From a virus, in IMG/VR virus record IMGVR_UViG_3300020456_000005: DNA of 64,000 nucleotides; one strand, given 5' to 3'. Shown one piece after another: positions 3-52,348 of this stretch. Every line of letters begins with the position of its first letter. Position 1 is the stretch's first letter. The position numbers were made by a program, and so were the translations under genes. Below the pieces are notes generated by a model. It saw only the letters and a program-made list of their open reading frames with translations. It was not told where the DNA came from and made no database searches.

Positions 3-1919
3 GCAGTTGGTGAGTTGATCAGTGATCAATCTCCTTCCAACTACCTCTATTACTTCCCAGTTAAGGGAACCTTCGTACAGAATGAAGTTGTCACTGGACA
101 AACTTCATCTGCATATGTAACTCTCGTTAATAACACTGATGCAGTCACTGGACAGAAAGGTTTCGTACTTACTGTTGTTGATCTTGCTGCTGGTCCTGAC
201 CAAGGTGGTTCTGTTGAATTGCAGGACAACGGAGTTAATGATGACGCTGGTTCATACGTTATCTCCAACTCCAGCTACACTGCTCCAGATGGTAGAGGTT
301 CTCTAACCGTCAACAGAGGTGCTCTAGGATCTACTGCAGCAGCTCATGATGGTACTACATCTATTACACACTATCCAGAGAACGCAACTGCTGTAACAAC
401 TACATTGAGTGGTGCTATCAACTCAACCTCAACAGGTACTGAAGCAGCACCATACATCATGGGTGTTGATAGTGTTACTGGAATGATTGCAAATGGTTAC
501 GTTGTTGTTAATCAGGAACTCTTTAAGGTTGTAGCAATTATCGCTGCAGACCAGATTGAGGTTGCTAGAGCACAAGACGGAACGATTGCACAAAACCACG
601 CACAAGGCGATGCGGTAACAATTTATCAGACAAAGGTTACTTCTCAGGATGAACTGATTGAAGATACAACTGATGCTCAATTGGCCCTTCGTGTTAAGCG
701 TGCAGACCTCAACTTTGAGGCAAATGATTATGTCAAGATTGACAATGAATTCTTCCTTATCTCTGCAGTAACTCCTGATACTACTGGTATTACTACACTT
801 CTCTTCTCTGATGAGAAAGTAATTGCTGCAGGCGATGGACAAGACTTTAAGATTCGCTATCGTTATTCACAGGTCAGACTAACTGCTCACGACTTCCTAG
901 ACGTTGGTACTGGAAGCAAAGCAAATACTAATTGGCCTGGTCTACCTCTATCACCAAACGTTCCTTCATACGAGACTGATGAATCCCGTCCAGGTCGTGT
1001 TTACTACGTATCCACGGACCAAGATGGTAACTTCGCAGTTGGTAAGTACTTCAGAGTTGAACAGGCAACTGGTAAAGCAACTCTAGACGCTTCCGCGTTT
1101 GACCTATCTGGTCTATCAAGTTTGAGACTTGGTTCTATCGGTGCTCAGTTGGGTGCTGCTATTAACGAGTTCTCAACTGACGGCACGATGGCGCAGAACA
1201 GTAACGAGAAAGTTCCTACTCAGGCAGCAGTCGTTACTTACATCAGCAATCTAAGCGGTGTTGATTCTGACTTTAGCATTGGTGGTAACCTCACTGTTAA
1301 GGGAACTACAACAACAGTTTCTTCTGTTACTGTTACTTCAAAAGACCGTAACATTGAACTTGGTACTGTTGCTTCTGGATCTTTCACTGGTGATATTGCT
1401 GCTGGTTCAACTGATATTACAAACGTTAGTGACACCACAAACCTCGCACCAGGAGTTGCTATTTCACTAACCAGTGGTGGTGGCACAGTTACCATGTCTG
1501 GTTCTTATACAGTATCTTCTATCTCAGGAACTACAGTTACTCTAAGTGCTGTATTCCAAGGTAGTGGTAGTGCAACTGGTGCATCATTCACTGCTGGTGG
1601 ACCTTCAGATGTCACTGGCGACGGTGGTGGTATTACTGTAAAAGCTGGTAACGACAAGTCTATTTCTTGGTCTGCATCTGGTGATAAGTGGGTGCTTTCC
1701 GAGCACGTTGATATTCCTGCTTCTAAGGAATACCACATTGATGGAACCTCTGTTCTATCTGCAACTGCTGTACTAGGTAAGTCATTTGACAATGATACAA
1801 CCCTTGGCGCTGGATCTGCGGATGATGCATCTGTTCCTACTCAATTAGCAGTTAAGACATACGTTGACAGTCAAACTCAAGAAGTAACTGCTATCGGTTA
1901 TTTCATTGCAGCAATGTGA
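3..1919 (+). CDS. Large tail-fibre-like virion protein, 5'-truncated by the window edge
   Basis: Frame open from nt 3; G/T/S-rich; repeated motifs (INEFSTDGT..KVPTQAAVVTYI / FDNDTTL..SVPTQLAVKTYV); lies upstream of neck genes. Confidence 0.7.
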   Translation, partial: AVGELISDQSPSNYLYYFPVKGTFVQNEVVTGQTSSAYVTLVNNTDAVTGQKGFVLTVVDLAAGPDQGGSVELQDNGVNDDAGSYVISNSSYTAPDGRGSLTVNRGALGSTAAAHDGTTSITHYPENATAVTTTLSGAINSTSTGTEAAPYIMGVDSVTGMIANGYVVVNQELFKVVAIIAADQIEVARAQDGTIAQNHAQGDAVTIYQTKVTSQDELIEDTTDAQLALRVKRADLNFEANDYVKIDNEFFLISAVTPDTTGITTLLFSDEKVIAAGDGQDFKIRYRYSQVRLTAHDFLDVGTGSKANTNWPGLPLSPNVPSYETDESRPGRVYYVSTDQDGNFAVGKYFRVEQATGKATLDASAFDLSGLSSLRLGSIGAQLGAAINEFSTDGTMAQNSNEKVPTQAAVVTYISNLSGVDSDFSIGGNLTVKGTTTTVSSVTVTSKDRNIELGTVASGSFTGDIAAGSTDITNVSDTTNLAPGVAISLTSGGGTVTMSGSYTVSSISGTTVTLSAVFQGSGSATGASFTAGGPSDVTGDGGGITVKAGNDKSISWSASGDKWVLSEHVDIPASKEYHIDGTSVLSATAVLGKSFDNDTTLGAGSADDASVPTQLAVKTYVDSQTQEVTAIGYFIAAM

Positions 1920-42382: not shown

Positions 42383-42590
42383 AGAAATTGAAGATGTAAC
42401 GTTTGGTGATCCAGACTGCATCTTAGTTGATCCTATGCTGATTGATGGGGACCAGTTGACAGACTGGCTCCCTTTTGCCACTAAAAAGGAGGCAGTCATC
42501 CGATCTTCTGATATAATTACATTTGTTGATCCGAGTAGCGACATGATTACTCGGTACTATGGTGGAAAACCCGCACTGCTTACTGAATGA
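42309..42590 (+). CDS. Hypothetical protein
   Basis: GDPDCIL.DP, WLPF; ATGA coupling to g43; start uncertain. Confidence 0.65.
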   Translation: MEMISLEKLLKVLLLKDQWLLAQVEEIEDVTFGDPDCILVDPMLIDGDQLTDWLPFATKKEAVIRSSDIITFVDPSSDMITRYYGGKPALLTE

Positions 42591-45076
42591 AGTTTTATAC
42601 TAATGTTGAACAGGCAGGCAACCGCCTGCTGGTCCGTGGTTATGAAGGTGGTCAACCTTTTTCATACAGGGTATCTTTCAGTCCTACCCTGTATGTCCCT
42701 ACAAAGAATTATTCTGAGTGGAGGACACTAGAAGGTAACTGCGTTGAACCTCTTAACATGGGTTCTATTAACGAAGCGAAAGAGTTCATCAAAAAGTATA
42801 AAGAAGTTGAGGAGTTTCCTATTTACGGAAACAGCAGGTATCTGTATCAATATATTGCTCAAGAGCATCCCGAAGAAGAGATTCGTTATGACGTTTCTAA
42901 GATTCGTGTGTTTACTATTGATATTGAAACCGCAGCAGAGAATGGTTTTCCCGACATTGAAACTGCAGACCAAGAGATCTTAGCGATCAGTATCAAAGAT
43001 TCATATACTGGTCGCATTGTTGTCTTTGGAGCTCGTCCATTTGACAACAAAGATTCTATGGTTGATTACATGCATTTTAATTCTGAAGAGTCAATGCTTT
43101 CAGCATTTCTTCAGTATTGGAATGAAAATTGTCCTGACGTTGTTACAGGTTGGAATGTTCAGTTGTTTGATATTCCCTATATTGCTAGGCGTATTGATAG
43201 GGTACTTGGTGAGAAGTTTACTAGGACTCTTAGCCCTTGGAAACTTATTTCTTCTAGAGAGATTTTCATTAAAGGAAGAAAGCAGGTCGCTTATGATCTA
43301 CCAGGAATTTCTACGCTGGATTATTATGACTTGTATAGGAAATTTACCTATCAGAATCAAGAGTCTTATAGGTTGGATCATATTGCCTTTGTTGAACTCG
43401 GACAAAAGAAATTAGATCACTCTGAGTACGATACATTCAAAGAGTTCTACGAGAACGATTGGCAAAAATTCATTGAGTATAACATCCACGACGTACGTCT
43501 GGTTGATAAACTTGATGATAAAATGAAATTGATTGAACTTGCATTTACTATGGCATATGATGCCAAGGTAAATTATGAAGATGTGTTCTCACAAGTTCGT
43601 ATGTGGGACAACTACATTTATGTGGAACTTCTGAAGAGGAAGATTGCAATTCCTCCTAAAAAAGAAGCGACAAAAGATGCAAAATACGCAGGAGCATATG
43701 TCAAGGAACCGAAACCAGGATTCTATGATTGGGTTGTTAGTTTTGACCTTAATAGTCTGTATCCTCATCTTATCATGCAGTACAATATCTCGCCAGAAAC
43801 ACTCAGGGAAGCTAGACATCCCAGCGCGAGCGTTGAGGGGATTCTAAACAAACAAGTTGAACTAGATCCTGAGTTTTCTACGTGTGCTAATGGAGCACAG
43901 TACAGAAAAGATGTTCATGGATTCCTACCCCAGATGATGCAGAAGATGTATGACTCTAGGGTTATTTTTAAAAAGAAAATGATTAAAGCGAAGCAGGAGT
44001 ATGAAAAAACTCCTACTGTTGAACTCATGAATGAGATCGCTCGCTGTAATAATATTCAGATGGCAAAGAAGATTTCTTTGAACTCTGCTTATGGTGCCAT
44101 TGGTAATGAACACTTTAGATATTATCGTCTTGCTAATGCTGAAGCAATCACATTGAGTGGTCAGGTTTCAATTCGCTGGATTGAGAACAAAATGAATGAA
44201 TATCTAAATAAACTACTCTCTACTGATAAGGTTGATTATGTTATCGCATCTGACACCGACTCAATTTATCTTAACCTCGGACCTCTTGTTAATAAATTTT
44301 TTAGTGCTAAGTCTGGCGACAAAGCAGCAATTGTGGACATACTTGACAAGATCTGCCAAGAGAAATTGGAACCTTTTATTGAACGTTCATATGAAGAACT
44401 TGCGTCGTACGTATCAGCGTATGACCAAAAGATGCAAATGAAGCGTGAGAACATTGCAGACCGTGGCATCTGGACTGCAAAGAAGCGTTACATTCTTAAT
44501 GTTTGGGATAGTGAGGGAGTTAGATATAAAGAACCCAAGATGAAGATCATGGGTCTTGAAACAGCAAGGAGTTCTACTCCTGCGTATTTTAGAGACAAGT
44601 TGTATGCAGCATTTAAGATTATTATCGGGAAAACAAATGATGAGCTTATCAATTTCATCAATGACGTGCGGTCGGAAACCCGAATGCGACCATATGAAGA
44701 AGTTGCTTTCCCGCGAGGAGTTAATAACCTTGCAAAATATCGCCACCCAAACGAAATATACTCCAAAGGGACTCCAATCCATGTGCGAGGAGCATTGTTG
44801 TATAATCACTATGTTAAAAAACACGGAGTAGAAAACAAACATCCTCTCATCCAAGAGGGTGAGAAGATTAAATTCATGTATTTGAAAACACCTAATCCAA
44901 TCCATGAAAACTGTATCAGTTTCTTTGGGCAATTACCTAAAGAATTTGGTATTGAAAAGTATGTGGATTATCAGACACAGTTTGAGAAATCTTTCTTGGA
45001 ACCATTAAAAAATGTGTTACAATGTATCGGATGGACCCATCAAAAAACTGTGTCAATTGGGAGTTTCTTTGAATGA
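42587..45076 (+). CDS. g43: Family B DNA polymerase gp43
   Basis: DIET, SFDLNSLYP, KISLNSAYG, SDTDS, KKRY. Confidence 0.98.
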   Translation: MKFYTNVEQAGNRLLVRGYEGGQPFSYRVSFSPTLYVPTKNYSEWRTLEGNCVEPLNMGSINEAKEFIKKYKEVEEFPIYGNSRYLYQYIAQEHPEEEIRYDVSKIRVFTIDIETAAENGFPDIETADQEILAISIKDSYTGRIVVFGARPFDNKDSMVDYMHFNSEESMLSAFLQYWNENCPDVVTGWNVQLFDIPYIARRIDRVLGEKFTRTLSPWKLISSREIFIKGRKQVAYDLPGISTLDYYDLYRKFTYQNQESYRLDHIAFVELGQKKLDHSEYDTFKEFYENDWQKFIEYNIHDVRLVDKLDDKMKLIELAFTMAYDAKVNYEDVFSQVRMWDNYIYVELLKRKIAIPPKKEATKDAKYAGAYVKEPKPGFYDWVVSFDLNSLYPHLIMQYNISPETLREARHPSASVEGILNKQVELDPEFSTCANGAQYRKDVHGFLPQMMQKMYDSRVIFKKKMIKAKQEYEKTPTVELMNEIARCNNIQMAKKISLNSAYGAIGNEHFRYYRLANAEAITLSGQVSIRWIENKMNEYLNKLLSTDKVDYVIASDTDSIYLNLGPLVNKFFSAKSGDKAAIVDILDKICQEKLEPFIERSYEELASYVSAYDQKMQMKRENIADRGIWTAKKRYILNVWDSEGVRYKEPKMKIMGLETARSSTPAYFRDKLYAAFKIIIGKTNDELINFINDVRSETRMRPYEEVAFPRGVNNLAKYRHPNEIYSKGTPIHVRGALLYNHYVKKHGVENKHPLIQEGEKIKFMYLKTPNPIHENCISFFGQLPKEFGIEKYVDYQTQFEKSFLEPLKNVLQCIGWTHQKTVSIGSFFE

Positions 45077-45249
45077 GTAAGAAAGTCTTTGTGGTAACAT
45101 GGACAAATCACGTAGTCGGTCAAATTGGATCTGAAGACATCAAATGTTTTGAAGACTACAAAACTGCTCTTGCGTTTGCTAAACTAATGCGAGACAATTA
45201 TACTTATGTAAACTTTTATGAGGATGAAGCAACACAATGGGATTTTTAG
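45073..45249 (+). CDS. Small hypothetical protein (58 aa)
   Basis: Manual translation [18 protein letters not shown]...; ATGA coupling to g43. Confidence 0.6.
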
Positions 45250-46250
45250 ATACTGTAATTAAAGATAGTGGAAACGAATTTGCTGGTTTGGTTAGTGAAG
45301 GAGTTGCTGCTGGCGACATTACTAATTACGTTGATACTGGCAGTTATATCTTTAACGCCTTGGTTAGTGGTTCGTTGTTTGGAGGCTTGCCTTCCAACAA
45401 AGTTACAGCCTTGGCAGGAGAATCAAGCACGGGCAAGACTTTTTTTGCTCTCAGCGTCGTTCGTAATTTCCTTGACGCTAATCCTACAGGTGGCGTCATT
45501 TATTTTGAAACTGAATCCGCCATTTCCCGTGACATGATTGAGTCTCGTGGCATTGACAGTTCTCGTATGGTACTGTTCCCTGTTGCTACCATTGAGGAGT
45601 TCAGGACACAGGCATGCAGGATCCTTGACAAGTATCTTAAGGAACCAAAGGAGAGCAGACAACCAATGATGTTTGTGCTAGACTCTCTTGGTATGCTTTC
45701 AACCAATAAAGAGATGGAAGATGTTGCTAACGACAAACAAGTTCGTGACATGACCAAATCACAGTTGATCAAAGGTGCCTTCCGTGTGCTAACATTGAAG
45801 CTTGGTCAGGCACAAGTCCCTATGATCGTCACAAACCATACCTATGATGTGATCGGTTCCTATGTCCCTGCAAAGGAGATGGGAGGCGGTACAGGTCTTA
45901 AGTATGCTGCATCTACTATCATCTATCTTGGCAAGAAGAAGGAGAAAGATGGCACTGAACTGGTGGGTAACATCATCAAGTGCGAAGCAAAGAAATCTCG
46001 TCTAACCAAGGAGGGTAGTAAAGTTGAAACTCGTCTATTTTTTGACGACCGTGGACTTGACAAGTATTACGGGCTACTGGAATTGGGTGAACAGTACGGA
46101 ATCTTCAAGCGGGTGGGGAATCGCATTAAGTTTGGTGAATCTTCTGTTTATCCTAAATCTATTCTCTCTAATCCTGAGAAGTATTTTACCGAAGAAGTAA
46201 TGGCAAAACTAGAAGAAGCTGCCAGAGAAGAATTTACCTACGGAAACTAA
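45237..46250 (+). CDS. uvsX: RecA-like recombinase UvsX
   Basis: [22 protein letters not shown]. Confidence 0.96.
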
Positions 46251-46939
46251 TGAACTATTCTGAATTTATTACTAAGTACAAAACTATTAAAGAAAAGGGA
46301 TTTATTAAATCTCAACGTAAAGGTGATGGTGCTGTTGGTAATACATTTGAAGATGAATTGGGACTGCAAGAAAATAACATAGCAGGACCAGACATTGAAG
46401 GTAACGAATTAAAAGTTAAGCGAGCAACTGCTAGTGGACTACAAACTCTCTTCAACAAAGAAGGTGAGTGGCAAATGACACAAATTGAATTTCTTGAGGG
46501 ATATGGATTCCCACATACCAAATATGTTGGTGAAAAAACTGCTCAATCTACAGTTAAAAAAACACCTAACAAGAGAGGGTATTATTTTGAAACTGATGAA
46601 GAGCATCTCTATGTTAAATGTAAAGATGTCACCATTGTAAAATGGAATTGGACTCAGTTGGTAGAGCAATTTGGTAAGAAATTTCCTAATTGTATTAAAG
46701 TATTAGCAGAGACAAAAAAGATTGGAGGTGTTGAATACTTTCATTATAATAAAGCATACTTGTTTAAAGGAACTACAAAAGAAAAGTTCAAAGAGTTAAT
46801 TGAAGAAGATGTAATTTCTATTGACTTCAGACTTTACACTCAGTATAATAAAGGTAAGGGAGTAAGAAATCGTGGTACTGCTTTTCGTATCCGTCACGAA
46901 GATATGGATAAATTATTTGTTAAGGAGACTCTAAATTGA
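46250..46939 (+). CDS. MvaI/BcnI-family restriction endonuclease
   Basis: RKGDGAVGNTFEDELGLQENNIAGPDIEGNELK (PD..ELK), C-terminal RNRGTAFRI. Confidence 0.8.
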   Translation: MNYSEFITKYKTIKEKGFIKSQRKGDGAVGNTFEDELGLQENNIAGPDIEGNELKVKRATASGLQTLFNKEGEWQMTQIEFLEGYGFPHTKYVGEKTAQSTVKKTPNKRGYYFETDEEHLYVKCKDVTIVKWNWTQLVEQFGKKFPNCIKVLAETKKIGGVEYFHYNKAYLFKGTTKEKFKELIEEDVISIDFRLYTQYNKGKGVRNRGTAFRIRHEDMDKLFVKETLN

Positions 46940-47787
46940 AGGACACAATTCTCTTTGGTGATTGTCGTGAAACATTAAAAGAGTTTACTGGTAAGGCGAG
47001 GATGTGTGTAACATCACCGCCTTATTATGGTTTGAGAAACTATGGTGGTGAACAAGATCAAATTGGTCTGGAACAAACACCAGAAGAATATGTTGACAAT
47101 CTCGTAAAAGTATTTCGTGAGGTAAGAAATTGTCTTACTGATGATGGAACATGCTGGGTTAATCTTGGTGATAGTTACTATAACTATAGACCAGGTAAAG
47201 GACAAGCAATTCATAAACAATCAGTATCTAAAACTAACCAAGATTTACCTAGCACATGTGCTAGACGAGGTAACAAACTAGAAGGTCTTAAAGAAAAAGA
47301 TCTTATTGGTATTCCTTGGATGTTTGCTTTTGCTATGAGAGCAGACGGATGGTATCTAAGACAAGATATTATCTGGAATAAACCTAATCCTATGCCTGAA
47401 AGTGTACGAGATAGATGTACTAAATCACATGAGTATATCTTTTTGTTTAGCAAAAGTCAGAATTATTATTTTGATGTTGATGCTATCAAAGAACCAACTG
47501 TAGATGGTAAAGGATTGAAGCGTAAGAAAACTGTGTGGGAAGTTAAAACCAAACCATATAAAGGAGCACACTTTGCTGTGTATCCACCAGAACTAATTGA
47601 ACCGTGTATTAAATCTGGAAGTGAAGAAGGTGACATTGTATTAGATCCTTTTATGGGATCTGGTACAACTGCTTTAGTATCCAAATCATTACAAAGGCAC
47701 TATCTGGGTTGCGAATTACATGAAGATTATGGTAGACTAATTCAGAAAAGGTTGAGTGAAAAATCATTTGCAAAAATTAAATTCTAA
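46936..47787 (+). CDS. Beta-class N4-cytosine/N6-adenine DNA methyltransferase
   Basis: TSPPY motif IV near N-terminus, DPFMGSGT motif I near C-terminus. Confidence 0.9.
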   Translation: MKDTILFGDCRETLKEFTGKARMCVTSPPYYGLRNYGGEQDQIGLEQTPEEYVDNLVKVFREVRNCLTDDGTCWVNLGDSYYNYRPGKGQAIHKQSVSKTNQDLPSTCARRGNKLEGLKEKDLIGIPWMFAFAMRADGWYLRQDIIWNKPNPMPESVRDRCTKSHEYIFLFSKSQNYYFDVDAIKEPTVDGKGLKRKKTVWEVKTKPYKGAHFAVYPPELIEPCIKSGSEEGDIVLDPFMGSGTTALVSKSLQRHYLGCELHEDYGRLIQKRLSEKSFAKIKF

Positions 47788-49172
47788 TGGCTGAACGAAT
47801 TGAAGAAATTATTTTACGAAACCTTCTCTTTAACGAAGAATATTATCGTAAGGTAGTGCCTTTCTTAAAGGCAGAATATTATGAGATTTACCATGAGAAA
47901 ATTATCTACGAAGAGATTGCTGACTTCGCTAGTAAGTACGATAAAGTTCCTACTAAAGAAGTTCTTACGATTAATCTACAAAACCGTAATGATCTTACTG
48001 ACGAATCGTTCAAAGATTCGGTACAGGCAGTATCCAACCTCTCGGACGAGTGGGTTGACTACGACTGGTTGCTTGACGCCACAGAAAAGTGGTGCAAGGA
48101 CCGAGCTATATACCTCGCACTCATGCAATCAATCAAGATTGCGGACGGCGGCGATCAGAAGATTTCGCGAGATGCGATACCCTCCATTCTCCAAGAAGCC
48201 TTGGCGGTTTCGTTTGATGAACACATCGGACACGATTACATAGAACAAGCAACAGACAGATATGATTTCTACCACAGAACAGAAGAAAAGATTCCCTTTG
48301 ACCTTGATAAGTTTAACTACATTACCAAAGGTGGTCTCCCTAATAAGACTCTCAACATCGCTCTTGCTGGTACAGGCGTCGGGAAAAGTCTATTCATGTG
48401 CCACTGCGCTGGTGCCGCGCTCACTCAGGGGAGGAACGTTCTCTACATTACATGTGAAATGGCAGAGGAGAAAATTGCTGAACGAATTGATGCAAACCTT
48501 CTGAACGTTAGTATTAGAGATCTTGCTGATCTACCCGAAGTTCTTTTCTCTAGTAAAGTTAATGAGATTGCTCGTAAAACTCAGGGCAAACTTATCATTA
48601 AAGAGTATCCAACAGCGTCTGCACATGCAGGACATTTCAGGGCACTCTTAAGTGATCTTAAACTAAAGAAAGATTTCAAACCCGATATTATTTTTATTGA
48701 TTATTTAAACATATGTGCAAGTGTGAGGTACAAAGGTGCGATTGTTAACTCGTATACCTATGTTAAAGCGATTGCTGAGGAGCTCCGTGGCTTTGCTGTG
48801 GAGTGTAACGTACCTATTATTAGTGCTACTCAGACTACTCGTTCTGGTTATGGGAATAGTGATCCAGATCTTACCGATACTTCTGAGTCTTTTGGTCTAC
48901 CTGCCACTGCTGATCTTATGTTTGCCCTTATCTCTACTGAGGAGTTGGAACAACAAGGTCGCATCATGGTCAAACAACTTAAAAACAGATACAATGAAAC
49001 CGCTGCCTCACGAAAATTCATGGTGGGAATTGACAGATCAAAAATGAAGCTGTATGATGTAGCGGATGACGCATCAGAAATTAATATTTCAGATGAAGAT
49101 ACGGGAGAACAGTTCTCCCAGTTTGCAGAATCCCAAACTAGATTATCCAAATTTGCCGAGTGGAATGTATGA
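47787..49172 (+). CDS. g41: Replicative helicase gp41
   Basis: AGTGVGKS, IDYLNI, ATQTTR, KQLKNRY. Confidence 0.96.
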   Translation: MAERIEEIILRNLLFNEEYYRKVVPFLKAEYYEIYHEKIIYEEIADFASKYDKVPTKEVLTINLQNRNDLTDESFKDSVQAVSNLSDEWVDYDWLLDATEKWCKDRAIYLALMQSIKIADGGDQKISRDAIPSILQEALAVSFDEHIGHDYIEQATDRYDFYHRTEEKIPFDLDKFNYITKGGLPNKTLNIALAGTGVGKSLFMCHCAGAALTQGRNVLYITCEMAEEKIAERIDANLLNVSIRDLADLPEVLFSSKVNEIARKTQGKLIIKEYPTASAHAGHFRALLSDLKLKKDFKPDIIFIDYLNICASVRYKGAIVNSYTYVKAIAEELRGFAVECNVPIISATQTTRSGYGNSDPDLTDTSESFGLPATADLMFALISTEELEQQGRIMVKQLKNRYNETAASRKFMVGIDRSKMKLYDVADDASEINISDEDTGEQFSQFAESQTRLSKFAEWNV

Positions 49173-50746
49173 AGATTAAAAGTATTATGGTTGTTGGCGG
49201 TGGGTCATCTGGTTGGATGACTGCTGCTGCTTTATGTAAAAAATTTGGTAAAGATATTAAAGTATCTGTTATTGAAGGAAAGAATTCCAATCCAGTTGGA
49301 GTAGGTGAATCTACTATTACTAAATTTAATTCTTATTTGAATTATATTCTTGAAATTGAAGATAAAGAGTGGATGCCTCATTGCAATGCCACCTATAAAA
49401 CTTCAATTAGATTTACTAATTTTAGAGATGGTAATGGTGAGGTATTTGAATACCCATTTGCAGGGTATCATAATGAAGATTCTTTTGGTAGGTGGTCTGT
49501 TGTCCGCGCAAAATATGATTTGGGACCAGACTCTTTCAATGAGTTTATGAATCAGGCTTATTGGTTAGCAAAACATAATAGGATGACTGACAATCCTGGT
49601 TTTGAATTTCAATTCTCATTGAAAAAAGATTCGGCATATCATTTTGATGCTGGTCTTTTTGGAAAGTTTCTTAAGAAAAGATTCTGTAAGAAAGCAAAGC
49701 ATTACATTGACGATGTTGTTGCCGTAAAAAAAGATGAAGACGGATACATCACTTCTTTAGTTGGAGATTCTGGAACTGAATACTCTGCAGATCTGTATGT
49801 TGATTGTACTGGATTTAAATCTTTACTCCTAGAAAAGGAAATGGGATCTGAGTTTGTTTCTTTCAAACCATGGTTAGATAACGATAGAGCTATTGCAACT
49901 CATTTACCATATAAAGATAAAAAGACAGAGCTCTGCAACGTTACCAATTGCACAGCATTAAGTAGTGGATGGTCATGGAATATTCCTTTATGGAATCGTA
50001 TGGGATCTGGATATGTTTACTCTAGTGATTTTATCAGTGATGATGATGCAGAAAAGGAGTTTAAAAAACATGTAGGTAATGAAGATATTGATATTCGTAA
50101 GATTAATATCCGACATGGAGTGAGAGAAAGAGGATGGGTTAAAAATGTAGTTGGTGTAGGTCTTGCGTTTGGTTTTATTGAACCACTAGAATCTACAGGA
50201 CTTGTGTCTACCCATGAAATGATTGAGCAACTAATTGAAATTCTTGATAGACGTAAGTATAATATTACTGGTTTTGATAGAGACTCTTACAACTATACTT
50301 GTCAGTTAGTTGTAACTGGATACATGTATTTTGTTTCTCTTCATTATAAACTTTCTCAAAGAAGTGATACTCCTTACTGGAAATATCAAACTGAACTTAA
50401 AGACTGGTTTAAACTTTCTGATCCTAGATTGTTTGCACAAAGAAAAGTTCATATTTCATATGATAATGGATCAACAAATCACTATGAAAATGTACATCAG
50501 ATGCATTCTCTAGCACACAGATGGGATCCTGAAAAACATGGTATTGCATATATCATGGCAGGCATGGGACATGTTCCTTATGCAGATTATCTTTATAAAG
50601 TCTTCTCAGATTCTGCGAAAGATAATCTTCAAGATGATGTTGATAAACTCTACAAGGAATTTAGAAACTATGTTAAAATACTAGAGGAAAAAGTTCTTAC
50701 ACTTCCAACATCTTACGAATTTCTACAACAAAACATTTATTCTTAA
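49169..50746 (+). CDS. prnA: Flavin-dependent (tryptophan) halogenase family protein
   Basis: GGGSSG, GVGEST, ATYK, YHFDA, DCTGF, WSWNIP, FIEPLESTG. Confidence 0.88.
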   Translation: MKIKSIMVVGGGSSGWMTAAALCKKFGKDIKVSVIEGKNSNPVGVGESTITKFNSYLNYILEIEDKEWMPHCNATYKTSIRFTNFRDGNGEVFEYPFAGYHNEDSFGRWSVVRAKYDLGPDSFNEFMNQAYWLAKHNRMTDNPGFEFQFSLKKDSAYHFDAGLFGKFLKKRFCKKAKHYIDDVVAVKKDEDGYITSLVGDSGTEYSADLYVDCTGFKSLLLEKEMGSEFVSFKPWLDNDRAIATHLPYKDKKTELCNVTNCTALSSGWSWNIPLWNRMGSGYVYSSDFISDDDAEKEFKKHVGNEDIDIRKINIRHGVRERGWVKNVVGVGLAFGFIEPLESTGLVSTHEMIEQLIEILDRRKYNITGFDRDSYNYTCQLVVTGYMYFVSLHYKLSQRSDTPYWKYQTELKDWFKLSDPRLFAQRKVHISYDNGSTNHYENVHQMHSLAHRWDPEKHGIAYIMAGMGHVPYADYLYKVFSDSAKDNLQDDVDKLYKEFRNYVKILEEKVLTLPTSYEFLQQNIYS

Positions 50747-51196: not shown

Positions 51197-52348
51197 ATGG
51201 CTTATAATTTAATACCGTCTACGTTTTCTGATGCAGGTTCTTCTGTAAAGCATATGGATAATGCTGCAGCAGCAGAAGCATTGAGGTTATGGAATTATCT
51301 TGTCACTACATATGGCATGGAGAATCCTCTTGCATTTAATCCGAGTAACAAAAAAGCAGTAAAGATTGCTAGAGCATTACAGACAGAATTTACAAAGGCA
51401 GAGATAAAAAGGAAACTAAAACTAACCTCTCTCAATTTTGACTTTGGTGATGGTAGTAGAGGTAATCGTGGTACAGGTAATAGAGGTAATTTATTTGAAG
51501 AACAACTAGAAGCAGGTATCAATGACTGGATTGAAAATCCAGACGACTTAGCGAGTAACAAATACAAAGATTTTATTTACGGTTTAGTAAAACATTATCA
51601 CCTTGAGGATTGTATTGCAATAAGAGTAATTGCAGAAGGTGCAGAAAATAAACCTAGACCTATGAAGATTGTCAATGGACATTGGCAAATAGGAACTGCG
51701 TCACCATCAACTGGATATAATATTGGTGCTACAGTTACTGACTTAACTTTAGAATCTAAGTGTAAAGGAAAACCATTGCACAAATATTACCTCTCATTAA
51801 AGATGAGTGGAACTACTAATCTATCTAATCTGGGATTGAAGAAAGAAGTATTTCCAGTTGATCAAGTAAAAGCATCTCAGATTACAACCGAAGCTGGTAA
51901 AGCTTTGATGAAAACTTTTGGATTAGATGAAGAATTATTTTGTAGAACTTTTAATGAATACCAATCAGGGAATAGGAACTTTAAAGTATTAGATTCTTCT
52001 CCAAACTATAACAAGGCATTGTTGAAAGAACTTATCAAAGGTTCCTTGGGATATGGATTCCATTATGTTCATCTTAACAAAGGTAAGATAAAACATATGG
52101 AAATTGATGAGGCATTTTTGAACAAAGCATCCAGTGCTAGTAATGTATCAATATCATATGGTGGTGAAACTGGTGGTGCAAAGAGAGTCAATATTAATCT
52201 GAAAACTCCACTGCTTGACATGTCTTTCAACATAAGAAATACTTCAGATAAAGGGTCTGCTGCAGATCCAGATCGTGTATACCCAGACAAGTTACAGTCA
52301 GGATACAAAATGAAGGGTGAAAGTATTGCAACGGTATTTAACGACTAA
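51197..52348 (+). CDS. Hypothetical protein, possible PD-(D/E)XK nuclease fold
   Basis: GNLFEEQL...VTDLTL...YYLSLK pattern; fold is inferred. Confidence 0.5.
   Translation: MAYNLIPSTFSDAGSSVKHMDNAAAAEALRLWNYLVTTYGMENPLAFNPSNKKAVKIARALQTEFTKAEIKRKLKLTSLNFDFGDGSRGNRGTGNRGNLFEEQLEAGINDWIENPDDLASNKYKDFIYGLVKHYHLEDCIAIRVIAEGAENKPRPMKIVNGHWQIGTASPSTGYNIGATVTDLTLESKCKGKPLHKYYLSLKMSGTTNLSNLGLKKEVFPVDQVKASQITTEAGKALMKTFGLDEELFCRTFNEYQSGNRNFKVLDSSPNYNKALLKELIKGSLGYGFHYVHLNKGKIKHMEIDEAFLNKASSASNVSISYGGETGGAKRVNINLKTPLLDMSFNIRNTSDKGSAADPDRVYPDKLQSGYKMKGESIATVFND

Follow-up and report, generated by a model that had tools for sequence, protein, structure and literature searches.

The 64,000-nucleotide IMG/VR record IMGVR_UViG_3300020456_000005 (hereafter the window, meaning this whole stretch of DNA) is part of the genome of a T4-like cyanomyovirus of the Kyanoviridae, and it carries, exactly between the core genes uvsX and g41, a two-gene cassette for a type II restriction-modification (R-M) system, with the gene for a restriction endonuclease, R, directly followed by that for a methyltransferase, M. 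From sequence comparisons, and with a moderate preference over the alternatives weighed below, we read this cassette as an active type IIP module of the MvaI type, likely specific for CCWGG, that moves as a two-gene unit among marine T4-like cyanophages and whose pay-off would lie mainly in phage competition and in its own spread. The cassette and its flanks contain the following features:

45237-46250, plus strand: uvsX (RecA-like recombinase), upstream flank; Pfam RecA, E 2e-12; named uvsX in relatives
46248-46252, plus strand: TAATG overlap of the uvsX stop and the R start
46250-46939, plus strand: R, restriction endonuclease of the MvaI/BcnI family (type IIP), 229 amino acids; Pfam PF15515
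46349-46414, plus strand: predicted catalytic residues E34, D48, E53 and K55 (E...PD...ExK), aligned to MvaI E36/D50/E55/K57
46821-46849, plus strand: promoter-like TTGACT-N17-TATAAT in the 3' part of R, matching 11 of 12 consensus positions
46823-46888, plus strand: predicted recognition-lobe residues D192, R194, R206-N207-R208 and R213, equivalent to MvaI D207, R209, H223-D224-H225 and R230
46922-46939, plus strand: TTGA overlap of the M start (TTG, 46936) with the R stop (TGA, 46937-46939), including the ribosome-binding site AAGGAG; read from the sequence
46936-47787, plus strand: M, beta-class amino-methyltransferase, 283 amino acids, TTG start; Pfam PF01555
47011-47025, plus strand: M motif IV, TSPPY, residues 26-30
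47191-47195: sole CCWGG site within the cassette, inside M, from the site list
47644-47670, plus strand: M motif I, DPFMGSGTT, residues 237-245
47785-47789, plus strand: TAATG overlap of the M stop and the g41 start
47787-49172, plus strand: g41 (DnaB-like primase-helicase), downstream flank; Pfam DnaB_C, E 5e-19; named g41 in relatives

An earlier reading of the window, made from the sequence only, had already described these open reading frames and their overlaps TAATG, TTGA and TAATG, and we found them as written. It had also proposed an MvaI/BcnI-like endonuclease and an SPPY-type methyltransferase, and profile searches agree on both. R matches the Pfam family MvaI_BcnI (PF15515) from end to end (E 2.4e-46; 159 bits with a cut-off of 25; profile positions 1-227 of 227), and M matches N6_N4_Mtase (PF01555; E 2.8e-57; 194.7 bits with a cut-off of 26.7) as well as PHROG 67 (E 1e-74). 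NCBIfam and PHROGs hold no family for R, and among the sequences of the PDB it matches MvaI (1e-16) and BcnI (2e-12) only. The PD..ELK site of R is intact, as had been claimed: P47-D48...E53-L54-K55, together with E34, align with the catalytic residues of MvaI, whose active site consists of Glu36, Asp50, Glu55 and Lys57 (PMC1874612), and none of E34, D48, E53 and K55 varies among 20 homologues with identities as low as 36%. An AlphaFold model of R built on the homologue alignment (predicted local distance difference test, pLDDT, 92.5) has a two-lobe, MutH-like fold, for which Foldseek returned TM-scores of 0.82 to the BcnI-DNA complex (2ODI) and 0.81 to the MvaI-DNA complex (2OAA), with E 1e-18, and no other close structure besides BcnI and MvaI. 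In the recognition lobe, R194, R206, R208 and R213 are invariant in the homologue alignment A1.

M shows the motif order of the beta class, with TSPPY ahead of DPFMGSGTT, and both motifs are invariant in 12 homologues. The SPPY form, rather than DPPY, is usual for N4-cytosine methyltransferases. The TTG start of M is credible because in other members of the family an ATG start aligns with it; it has an AAGGAG 9 nt upstream, in the same arrangement as in the related loci L003 and L028. M lacks 26 amino acids that are present in its homologue from Marine virus AG-345-L05, and we rejected the idea that it is damaged, given that forms of either length are widespread and that of the outgroup is short. 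The promoter-like TTGACT-N17-TATAAT lies 87 nt upstream of the M start; it is kept in seven of seven A-type alleles, including a rarer GAC codon for Asp, and is absent from the R' alleles, a diverged form of R described below. It might be a separate promoter for M, the evidence being weak because it overlaps a conserved protein motif of R.

In megablast comparisons, the interval 44500-49500 of the window showed 80-83% nucleotide identity to the Synechococcus phages Sf-CH1b, ACG-2014h, S-RSM4, S-WAM2 and S-H9-1, and in all of them the flanks aligned in two pieces, with about 1542 bp skipped and uvsX abutting g41. In Sf-CH1b, uvsX and g41 are adjacent and there is no cassette; PF15515 had no match in five complete isolate relatives, in a search run without a positive control and with which tblastn agrees. 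The cassette is, then, an insertion relative to the nearest relatives, and this synteny upholds the earlier description of an R-M pair lodged between uvsX and g41 in a lytic cyanophage.

The sequence-only reading had also attached a meaning to the hexanucleotide CTAATG, which is indeed present at both junctions (46247-46252 and 47784-47789) but has no significance, either as a repeat or as a scar. The window contains 47 copies of it, for an expectation of 40 +/- 7, and related copies of the cassette do not keep it: L003 has TTAATG/TGAATG, and in the R' loci there is a 77-nt spacer. We thus rejected it as a target-site duplication; the pair arises by chance from two overlaps of a stop with a start, and no conserved repeat was found at the cassette junctions among the related copies compared. 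Removing the cassette, which the earlier reading said would restore a coupled uvsX-g41 pair, would not give back the ancestral junction: in Sf-CH1b the two genes share 11 nt, ATGGCAACTGA, and the ancestral state therefore differs from the TAATG that deletion of the cassette would leave.

As for the recognition site, the earlier reading had named CCWGG and CCSGG without choosing between them. We compared observed pentamer counts with those expected under a maximal-order Markov model, ranking each among about 500 pentamers, in eleven genomes or contigs and without formal phylogenetic correction. The results for CCWGG (observed/expected) were as follows:

Window, carrier: 46/75, z -3.4, rank 1
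G002 (R' allele), carrier: 42/71, z -3.4, rank 1
G003, carrier: 104/180, z -5.7, rank 1
G004, carrier: 122/250, z -8.1, rank 1
G005, carrier: 122/191, z -5.0, rank 3
AG-345-L05, carrier: 39/54, z -2.0, rank 22
Sf-CH1b, non-carrier: 74/81, z -0.8, rank 115
S-RSM4, non-carrier: 74/82, z -0.9, rank 110
ACG-2014h, non-carrier: 70/68, z 0.3, rank 310
S-CAM4, non-carrier: 225/259, z -2.1, rank 47
S-SM2, non-carrier: 300/325, z -1.4, rank 99

CCWGG is the most depleted pentamer in four of the six carriers and is unremarkable in the five non-carriers (rank 47-310); the observed/expected ratios, 0.49-0.73 in the former and 0.87-1.03 in the latter, do not overlap. Carriers show the depletion whichever R allele, the window type or R', goes with the same M. 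A genome that has lost part of the sites of its own restriction enzyme bears the classical mark of a resident, active R-M system. In MvaI, Arg209 is the sole major-groove contact to the central T:A pair; R194 of the window aligns with it and does not vary within the clade; in BcnI this position is Cys. The carrier-specific depletion and the invariant Arg together point to CCWGG, and to activity in vivo, and because of them we regard CCWGG as the likely target of the cassette. Of the two sites originally named, the evidence thus favours CCWGG.

Other short sites are also avoided in these genomes. CCGG is absent from the window (43-90 expected), and hence CCSGG is too, and GGCC occurs 6 times for 31 expected; CCGG and GGCC are similarly depleted in Sf-CH1b, S-RSM4, ACG-2014h and G002. 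The window has no TCGA, for an expectation of 108 (Markov model) or 225 (base composition), whereas this tetranucleotide is kept in its close relatives (Sf-CH1b, 128/170; S-RSM4, 85/158; G002, 84/129), so that avoidance of the TaqI site is specific to the window lineage. A link of the TCGA loss to a nuclease-like gene at 51197-52345 was rejected, as L035 has an 83% orthologue and yet 13 TCGA in 6 kb. The most depleted pentamer pair in Sf-CH1b (L144) and S-RSM4 (L145), and not in the window, is GANTC (GACTC plus GAATC; combined z -6.1 and -4.8, respectively), which suggests that those two phages were exposed to a different restriction system.

Among 50,697 deposited phage records searched with tblastn, a single one, Marine virus AG-345-L05, contains a relative of R; it is a Kyanoviridae contig from a single-cell genome, with R 77% and M 71% identical to those of the window. 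A large protein collection yielded 124 R relatives, which come almost without exception from marine metagenomes and are either unnamed or annotated as "hypothetical protein". One member of the 90% cluster of the window R is on 87 contigs, and the cluster as a whole is on more than 100. A profile scan of IMG/VR retrieved 58 viral contigs, and in about 50 of these loci R is directly followed by a relative of the window M; the rest are mostly contig ends or distant family members. In a profile scan of one genome per prokaryote species, cellular relatives reached at most 43% identity, with two exceptions at 54-56%, and no cyanobacterial donor was found. The exceptions, L064 (NZVD01000053.1, metagenome-assembled genome (MAG) of 'Rhodopirellula sp.') and L065 (NHGE01000052.1, MAG of 'Euryarchaeota TMED129'), hold phage-clade copies of the cassette; one of them is identical with a 14,985-bp contig listed as viral in IMG/VR and the other nests among cyanophage R' alleles, and both are probably phage contigs misbinned into cellular genomes. 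In a quick maximum-likelihood tree (IQ-TREE), the window R, 29 other viral rows and three MAG rows form one clade (SH-aLRT 99), sister to a cellular clade of 55 rows. Judged from this tree and these searches, the clade of the window R is confined almost entirely to contigs of marine phages.

The cassette occupies at least four insertion contexts. It lies between uvsX and g41 in the window, in L003/L007 and in a dozen contigs (L024, L026-L035 and L049), and after a ResIII/DEAD helicase gene in AG-345-L05 and in the 145-284-kb contigs L014/L020/L061. In P-HM2-like Prochlorococcus myovirus contigs it is found between 2OG-Fe(II) oxygenase genes downstream of the tail fibres, and in G003 within an S-CAM4-like variable region. 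The complete 236-kb cyanomyovirus G004 carries it elsewhere, its own uvsX and g41 being adjacent without a cassette. Two candidates for decayed copies were discarded: the "type II DNA modification enzyme" of S-CAM4 is 39% identical over 62 amino acids only and is not considered a cassette remnant, and the members of 67-70 amino acids in the P0084 cluster are unrelated sequences rather than truncated nucleases.

Both genes appear to be retained by selection. The ratio of nonsynonymous to synonymous substitution rates (dN/dS) of R was 0.12-0.15 against four diverged copies and 0.25 against a fifth, L010, and that of M was 0.05-0.13. These values are in the range of those of the core genes g43, uvsX and g41 (0.06-0.12), and therefore R and M are both under purifying selection and maintained in phages. 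In the comparison with L003, the synonymous divergence (dS) of the cassette is about 0.6, well below the 1.2-1.8 of the flanking g43 and uvsX, which suggests that the cassette moved between the window and L003 lineages after their split.

The dozen contigs with the R' allele give a different picture of the nuclease gene. Compared with the window, their uvsX is 94% identical, M 94-95% and g41 86-88%, whereas R is just 54% identical, with saturated dS, and the two R types fall in different deep subclades of the quick tree. The window and the R' loci cease to be similar at the stop codon of uvsX and become so again some 30 nt ahead of that of R. From this pattern of identities and breakpoints, the R gene has been exchanged as a module while M was retained, possibly as an escape from inhibitors. 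In R' loci uvsX is followed by a 77-nt spacer (L028 4923-5000; L035 263-340), which contains a hairpin rich in GC accompanied by a run of T, a promoter (TTGCAA-N17-TATAGT) and the ribosome-binding site GAGG. Because of this predicted terminator, promoter and ribosome-binding site, the R' form reads as an autonomous transcription unit, unlike the form of the window, which is directly coupled to uvsX.

The operon around the cassette contains these further genes:

42587-45076, plus strand: g43, DNA polymerase
Between g43 and uvsX, plus strand: open reading frame of 58 codons
49160-50746, plus strand: tryptophan halogenase; Pfam Trp_halogenase, E 9e-102
From 50748, plus strand: MazG

The uvsX product of the window is 89-94% identical to those of L003/L028. 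The halogenase gene (49160-50746), between g41 and MazG, is likewise an insertion specific to the lineage, the second one in this operon; in Sf-CH1b, S-RSM4, ACG-2014h and the R' contigs MazG comes directly after g41.

How might such a cassette work? In the MvaI system, neither strand is cut once the inner cytosine of one of them carries an N4-methyl group; 5-methylcytosine gives no protection. M would N4-methylate the inner cytosine of CCWGG, and packaged phage DNA would then enter the next host protected. Should the MvaI rule apply, replicating hemimethylated phage DNA would stay safe and M would need merely to keep pace; having R ahead of M, and no controller protein, would then be of little cost to the phage but a danger to any unmethylated DNA in the cell. 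R, which is probably active against unprotected DNA of the host or of rival phages, would be made as a monomer from the uvsX-g41 replication operon and would cut unmethylated CCWGG DNA in the infected cell, that is, the host chromosome and co-infecting cassette-free phage genomes; the cassette-free relatives have about 1.5 CCWGG sites per kb. Leaky self-cutting would in turn select against CCWGG in carrier genomes. The main pay-off would probably be competition between phages together with the spread of the cassette itself, and breakdown of host DNA a side benefit; we rank nucleotide scavenging behind competition and self-spread in view of the patchy distribution, the mobility and the recent transfer of the cassette and of the swap of its R.

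Several observations weigh against an active CCWGG-specific module of this kind. The nearest solved relatives of M by sequence are N6-adenine enzymes (CcrM and MboIIA), a profile search against solved structures did not separate N4-cytosine from N6-adenine enzymes, and only the SPPY motif points to N4-cytosine. In the minor-groove loop, R has the residues DG, as in BcnI, and not NT (N28/T29) as in MvaI, a contact that the authors of the MvaI structure judged to add little specificity. The depletion of CCWGG is weak in AG-345-L05; the window and G002 are related lineages, so that there are fewer than six independent carriers; and the depletion could instead stem from a CCWGG restriction system of the host. 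Finally, G001, a distant carrier of R, has no PF01555 gene on 127 kb and a nearly normal number of CCWGG sites (94/113). Its R (L048 5001-5693, IMG/VR contig 3300005611_000007) is 47% identical to that of the window and is located between genes of the clamp-loader region, upstream of g43, in a distant T4-like phage whose g43 is 46% identical. This R could be a solitary nuclease or be paired with another kind of methyltransferase, or the contig could be incomplete.

Other roles have to be considered for an active system. R might serve host takeover in the first place, shredding the unmethylated host chromosome early, with host shut-off and a supply of nucleotides for phage replication, in the manner of T4 EndoII/EndoIV with hydroxymethyl-cytosine or of the packaged restriction enzymes of chloroviruses. 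The cassette lies within, and would be co-transcribed with, the early/middle replication operon, the R gene stands first, there is the chlorovirus precedent, and, as MvaI ignores 5-methylcytosine, Dcm-type methylation would be no shield for the host. We nevertheless think this unlikely to be the main role, in that most cyanomyoviruses, including the nearest relatives, manage without the cassette, its patchy, multi-context and recently transferred spread suits a competitive or selfish element better, and the analogous system of marseilleviruses spares host DNA. A purely selfish, homing-like element, in which, in mixed infections, R cuts cassette-free relatives at CCWGG near the empty uvsX|g41 site and UvsX-dependent repair fills in the cassette while the phage gains nothing, would fit the precise intergenic insertion between two conserved genes, as with the free-standing homing endonuclease genes of T-even phages, as well as the several insertion contexts, a cassette younger than its backbone, and CCWGG sites that cassette-free relatives have 180-900 bp from the empty site. 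Homing calls for a cleavage site at or next to the insertion point; the empty junction, TATGGCAACTGAGCG, contains no CCWGG, the nearest ones being those at 180-900 bp. There is no conserved junction repeat either, the hundreds of other R targets in each rival genome make killing likelier than conversion, and the strong purifying selection on both genes is equally expected if the phage benefits. A homing-like mode is hence possible, though not a classical one, and as the whole explanation we find it improbable.

The remaining alternatives concern the site and the nuclease itself. An active system with a different site, CCSGG as for BcnI or else CCNGG, could be argued from the predicted fold of R, which is as near to BcnI as to MvaI, from the BcnI-like DG at the position of MvaI N28/T29, and from a family known to hold both specificities. 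CCSGG does not occur in the window, G002, G003, G004 or AG-345-L05; it is also absent from cyanomyovirus non-carriers without CCGG, and therefore its count cannot discriminate. However, a BcnI-type R would have no target in the window and its close carriers, and a conserved M would therefore be pointless there; CCSGG would also leave the carrier-specific depletion of CCWGG unexplained, and the Arg at the position of MvaI R209 is invariant, being Cys in BcnI. Another site is, in our judgement, quite improbable. It is very unlikely, last, that M alone matters, shielding phage DNA from CCWGG restriction by the host with R as a passenger or inactive. Solitary protective methyltransferases are common in phages (PMC4176335), and host restriction would deplete CCWGG too; but about 50 loci have retained R together with M, the catalytic residues of R are invariant and its dN/dS is low, as given above, and where R was replaced it was by another intact allele and it was not lost. 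Moreover, avoidance imposed by hosts is total here (CCGG 0, TCGA 0), while that of CCWGG is partial, with a ratio of 0.5-0.6.

An active CCWGG module that serves competition and its own spread remains the reading that we prefer, and it would fit into a wider picture that we advance only tentatively, in which cyanophages engage in restriction warfare: phage-restricted CCWGG cassettes would hop between genomes and destroy or gene-convert unmethylated rivals, R would be swapped while M is kept, the depletion of target sites in carriers would be the scar, and S-SM2 (see below) would be a second case. If this picture were true, phage-borne restriction enzymes, besides those of hosts, would shape the oligonucleotide composition of phages. 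The cassette is common in marine metagenomes, yet unnamed everywhere; complete R-M systems are very rare in virulent phages, and the abundant T4-like cyanophages kill a large share of ocean picocyanobacteria. An active cassette would offer testable mechanisms for how a cyanophage without hypermodified bases discriminates its own DNA from that of the host, and for mutual exclusion of related phages in co-infection. Carrier-specific depletion of CCWGG, for its part, gives an inexpensive way to detect by computation the phage-borne nucleases of uncultured viruses.

R and M are ordinary members of two known families, and type II R-M systems of viruses were already known. In the literature searched we found no report of the MvaI/BcnI family in any phage, of a complete R-M pair in T4-like cyanophages, or of a phage-restricted clade, modular exchange of the nuclease gene or carrier-specific site depletion. 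That complete R-M pairs are unusual in lytic phages, as the sequence-only reading had stated, agrees with a survey that found nine systems in 831 phage genomes and "practically none" in virulent ones (PMC4176335), as well as with the single deposited record noted above.

Among the closest characterized systems is R.MvaI/M.MvaI from Kocuria varians (CC/WGG; PDB 2OA9, 2OAA). Its nuclease belongs to the same Pfam family as R, with the two-lobe fold, the same catalytic E/D/E/K and the same central-base Arg (R209); its methyltransferase is, like M, of the amino-methyl beta class, and its target, CCWGG, is the one that we infer for the cassette. Identity between R.MvaI and R is only about 25%, though, and the contacts to the CC half are H-D-H in MvaI and R-N-R in R; unlike the MvaI system, the cassette is encoded by a lytic phage, in its replication operon, with R first and with overlapping genes. 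R.BcnI/M.BcnIB from Brevibacillus centrosporus (CC/SGG; PDB 2ODH, 2ODI) shares the family and fold, the DG minor-groove loop and, as predicted for R, the monomeric architecture. R.BcnI has Cys where R and MvaI have Arg, and its target does not exist in the window and close carrier relatives, where CCWGG is selectively depleted.

Among lytic DNA viruses, complete type II R-M pairs with methylation of the own genome are found in the chlorovirus PBCV-1 (CviAI/CviAII) and in the Marseilleviridae (melbournevirus mel_015/mel_016). The chlorovirus system degrades unmethylated host DNA, whereas in melbournevirus the endonuclease is transcribed before the methyltransferase and degrades rival viruses and not host DNA (PMC7253447). 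Both belong to giant viruses of eukaryotes and use other enzyme families, with sites GATC and CATG; the cassette, in contrast, resides in a T4-like bacteriophage, would move between phage genomes, and is known here from its sequence.

Free-standing homing endonuclease genes of T-even phages insert precisely between conserved genes. Like the cassette, these genes (seg, mob) are optional, sit exactly between conserved core genes, are missing from close relatives and have spread through related phages. The cassette differs from them in that no single cognate empty site is cut, in having its own protecting methyltransferase and in its many targets per genome. A parallel nearer to hand is SSM2_066 of S-SM2, a solitary nuclease of the MjaI family (L180 3725-4252; NC_015279.1 50147-50674; Pfam RE_MjaI, E 1e-46), which, like R, is homologous to type II restriction enzymes and encoded by a T4-like cyanophage. 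The site of MjaI is CTAG, and the 180 kb of S-SM2 contain none, with 283 expected, whereas the counts are normal in the window (186/169) and in S-CAM4 (487/551). The S-SM2 nuclease is of another enzyme family and has no recognisable adjacent methyltransferase, and this genome looks as if it protects itself from its own nuclease by eliminating the site, a complete loss that parallels the partial depletion of CCWGG in carriers of the cassette.

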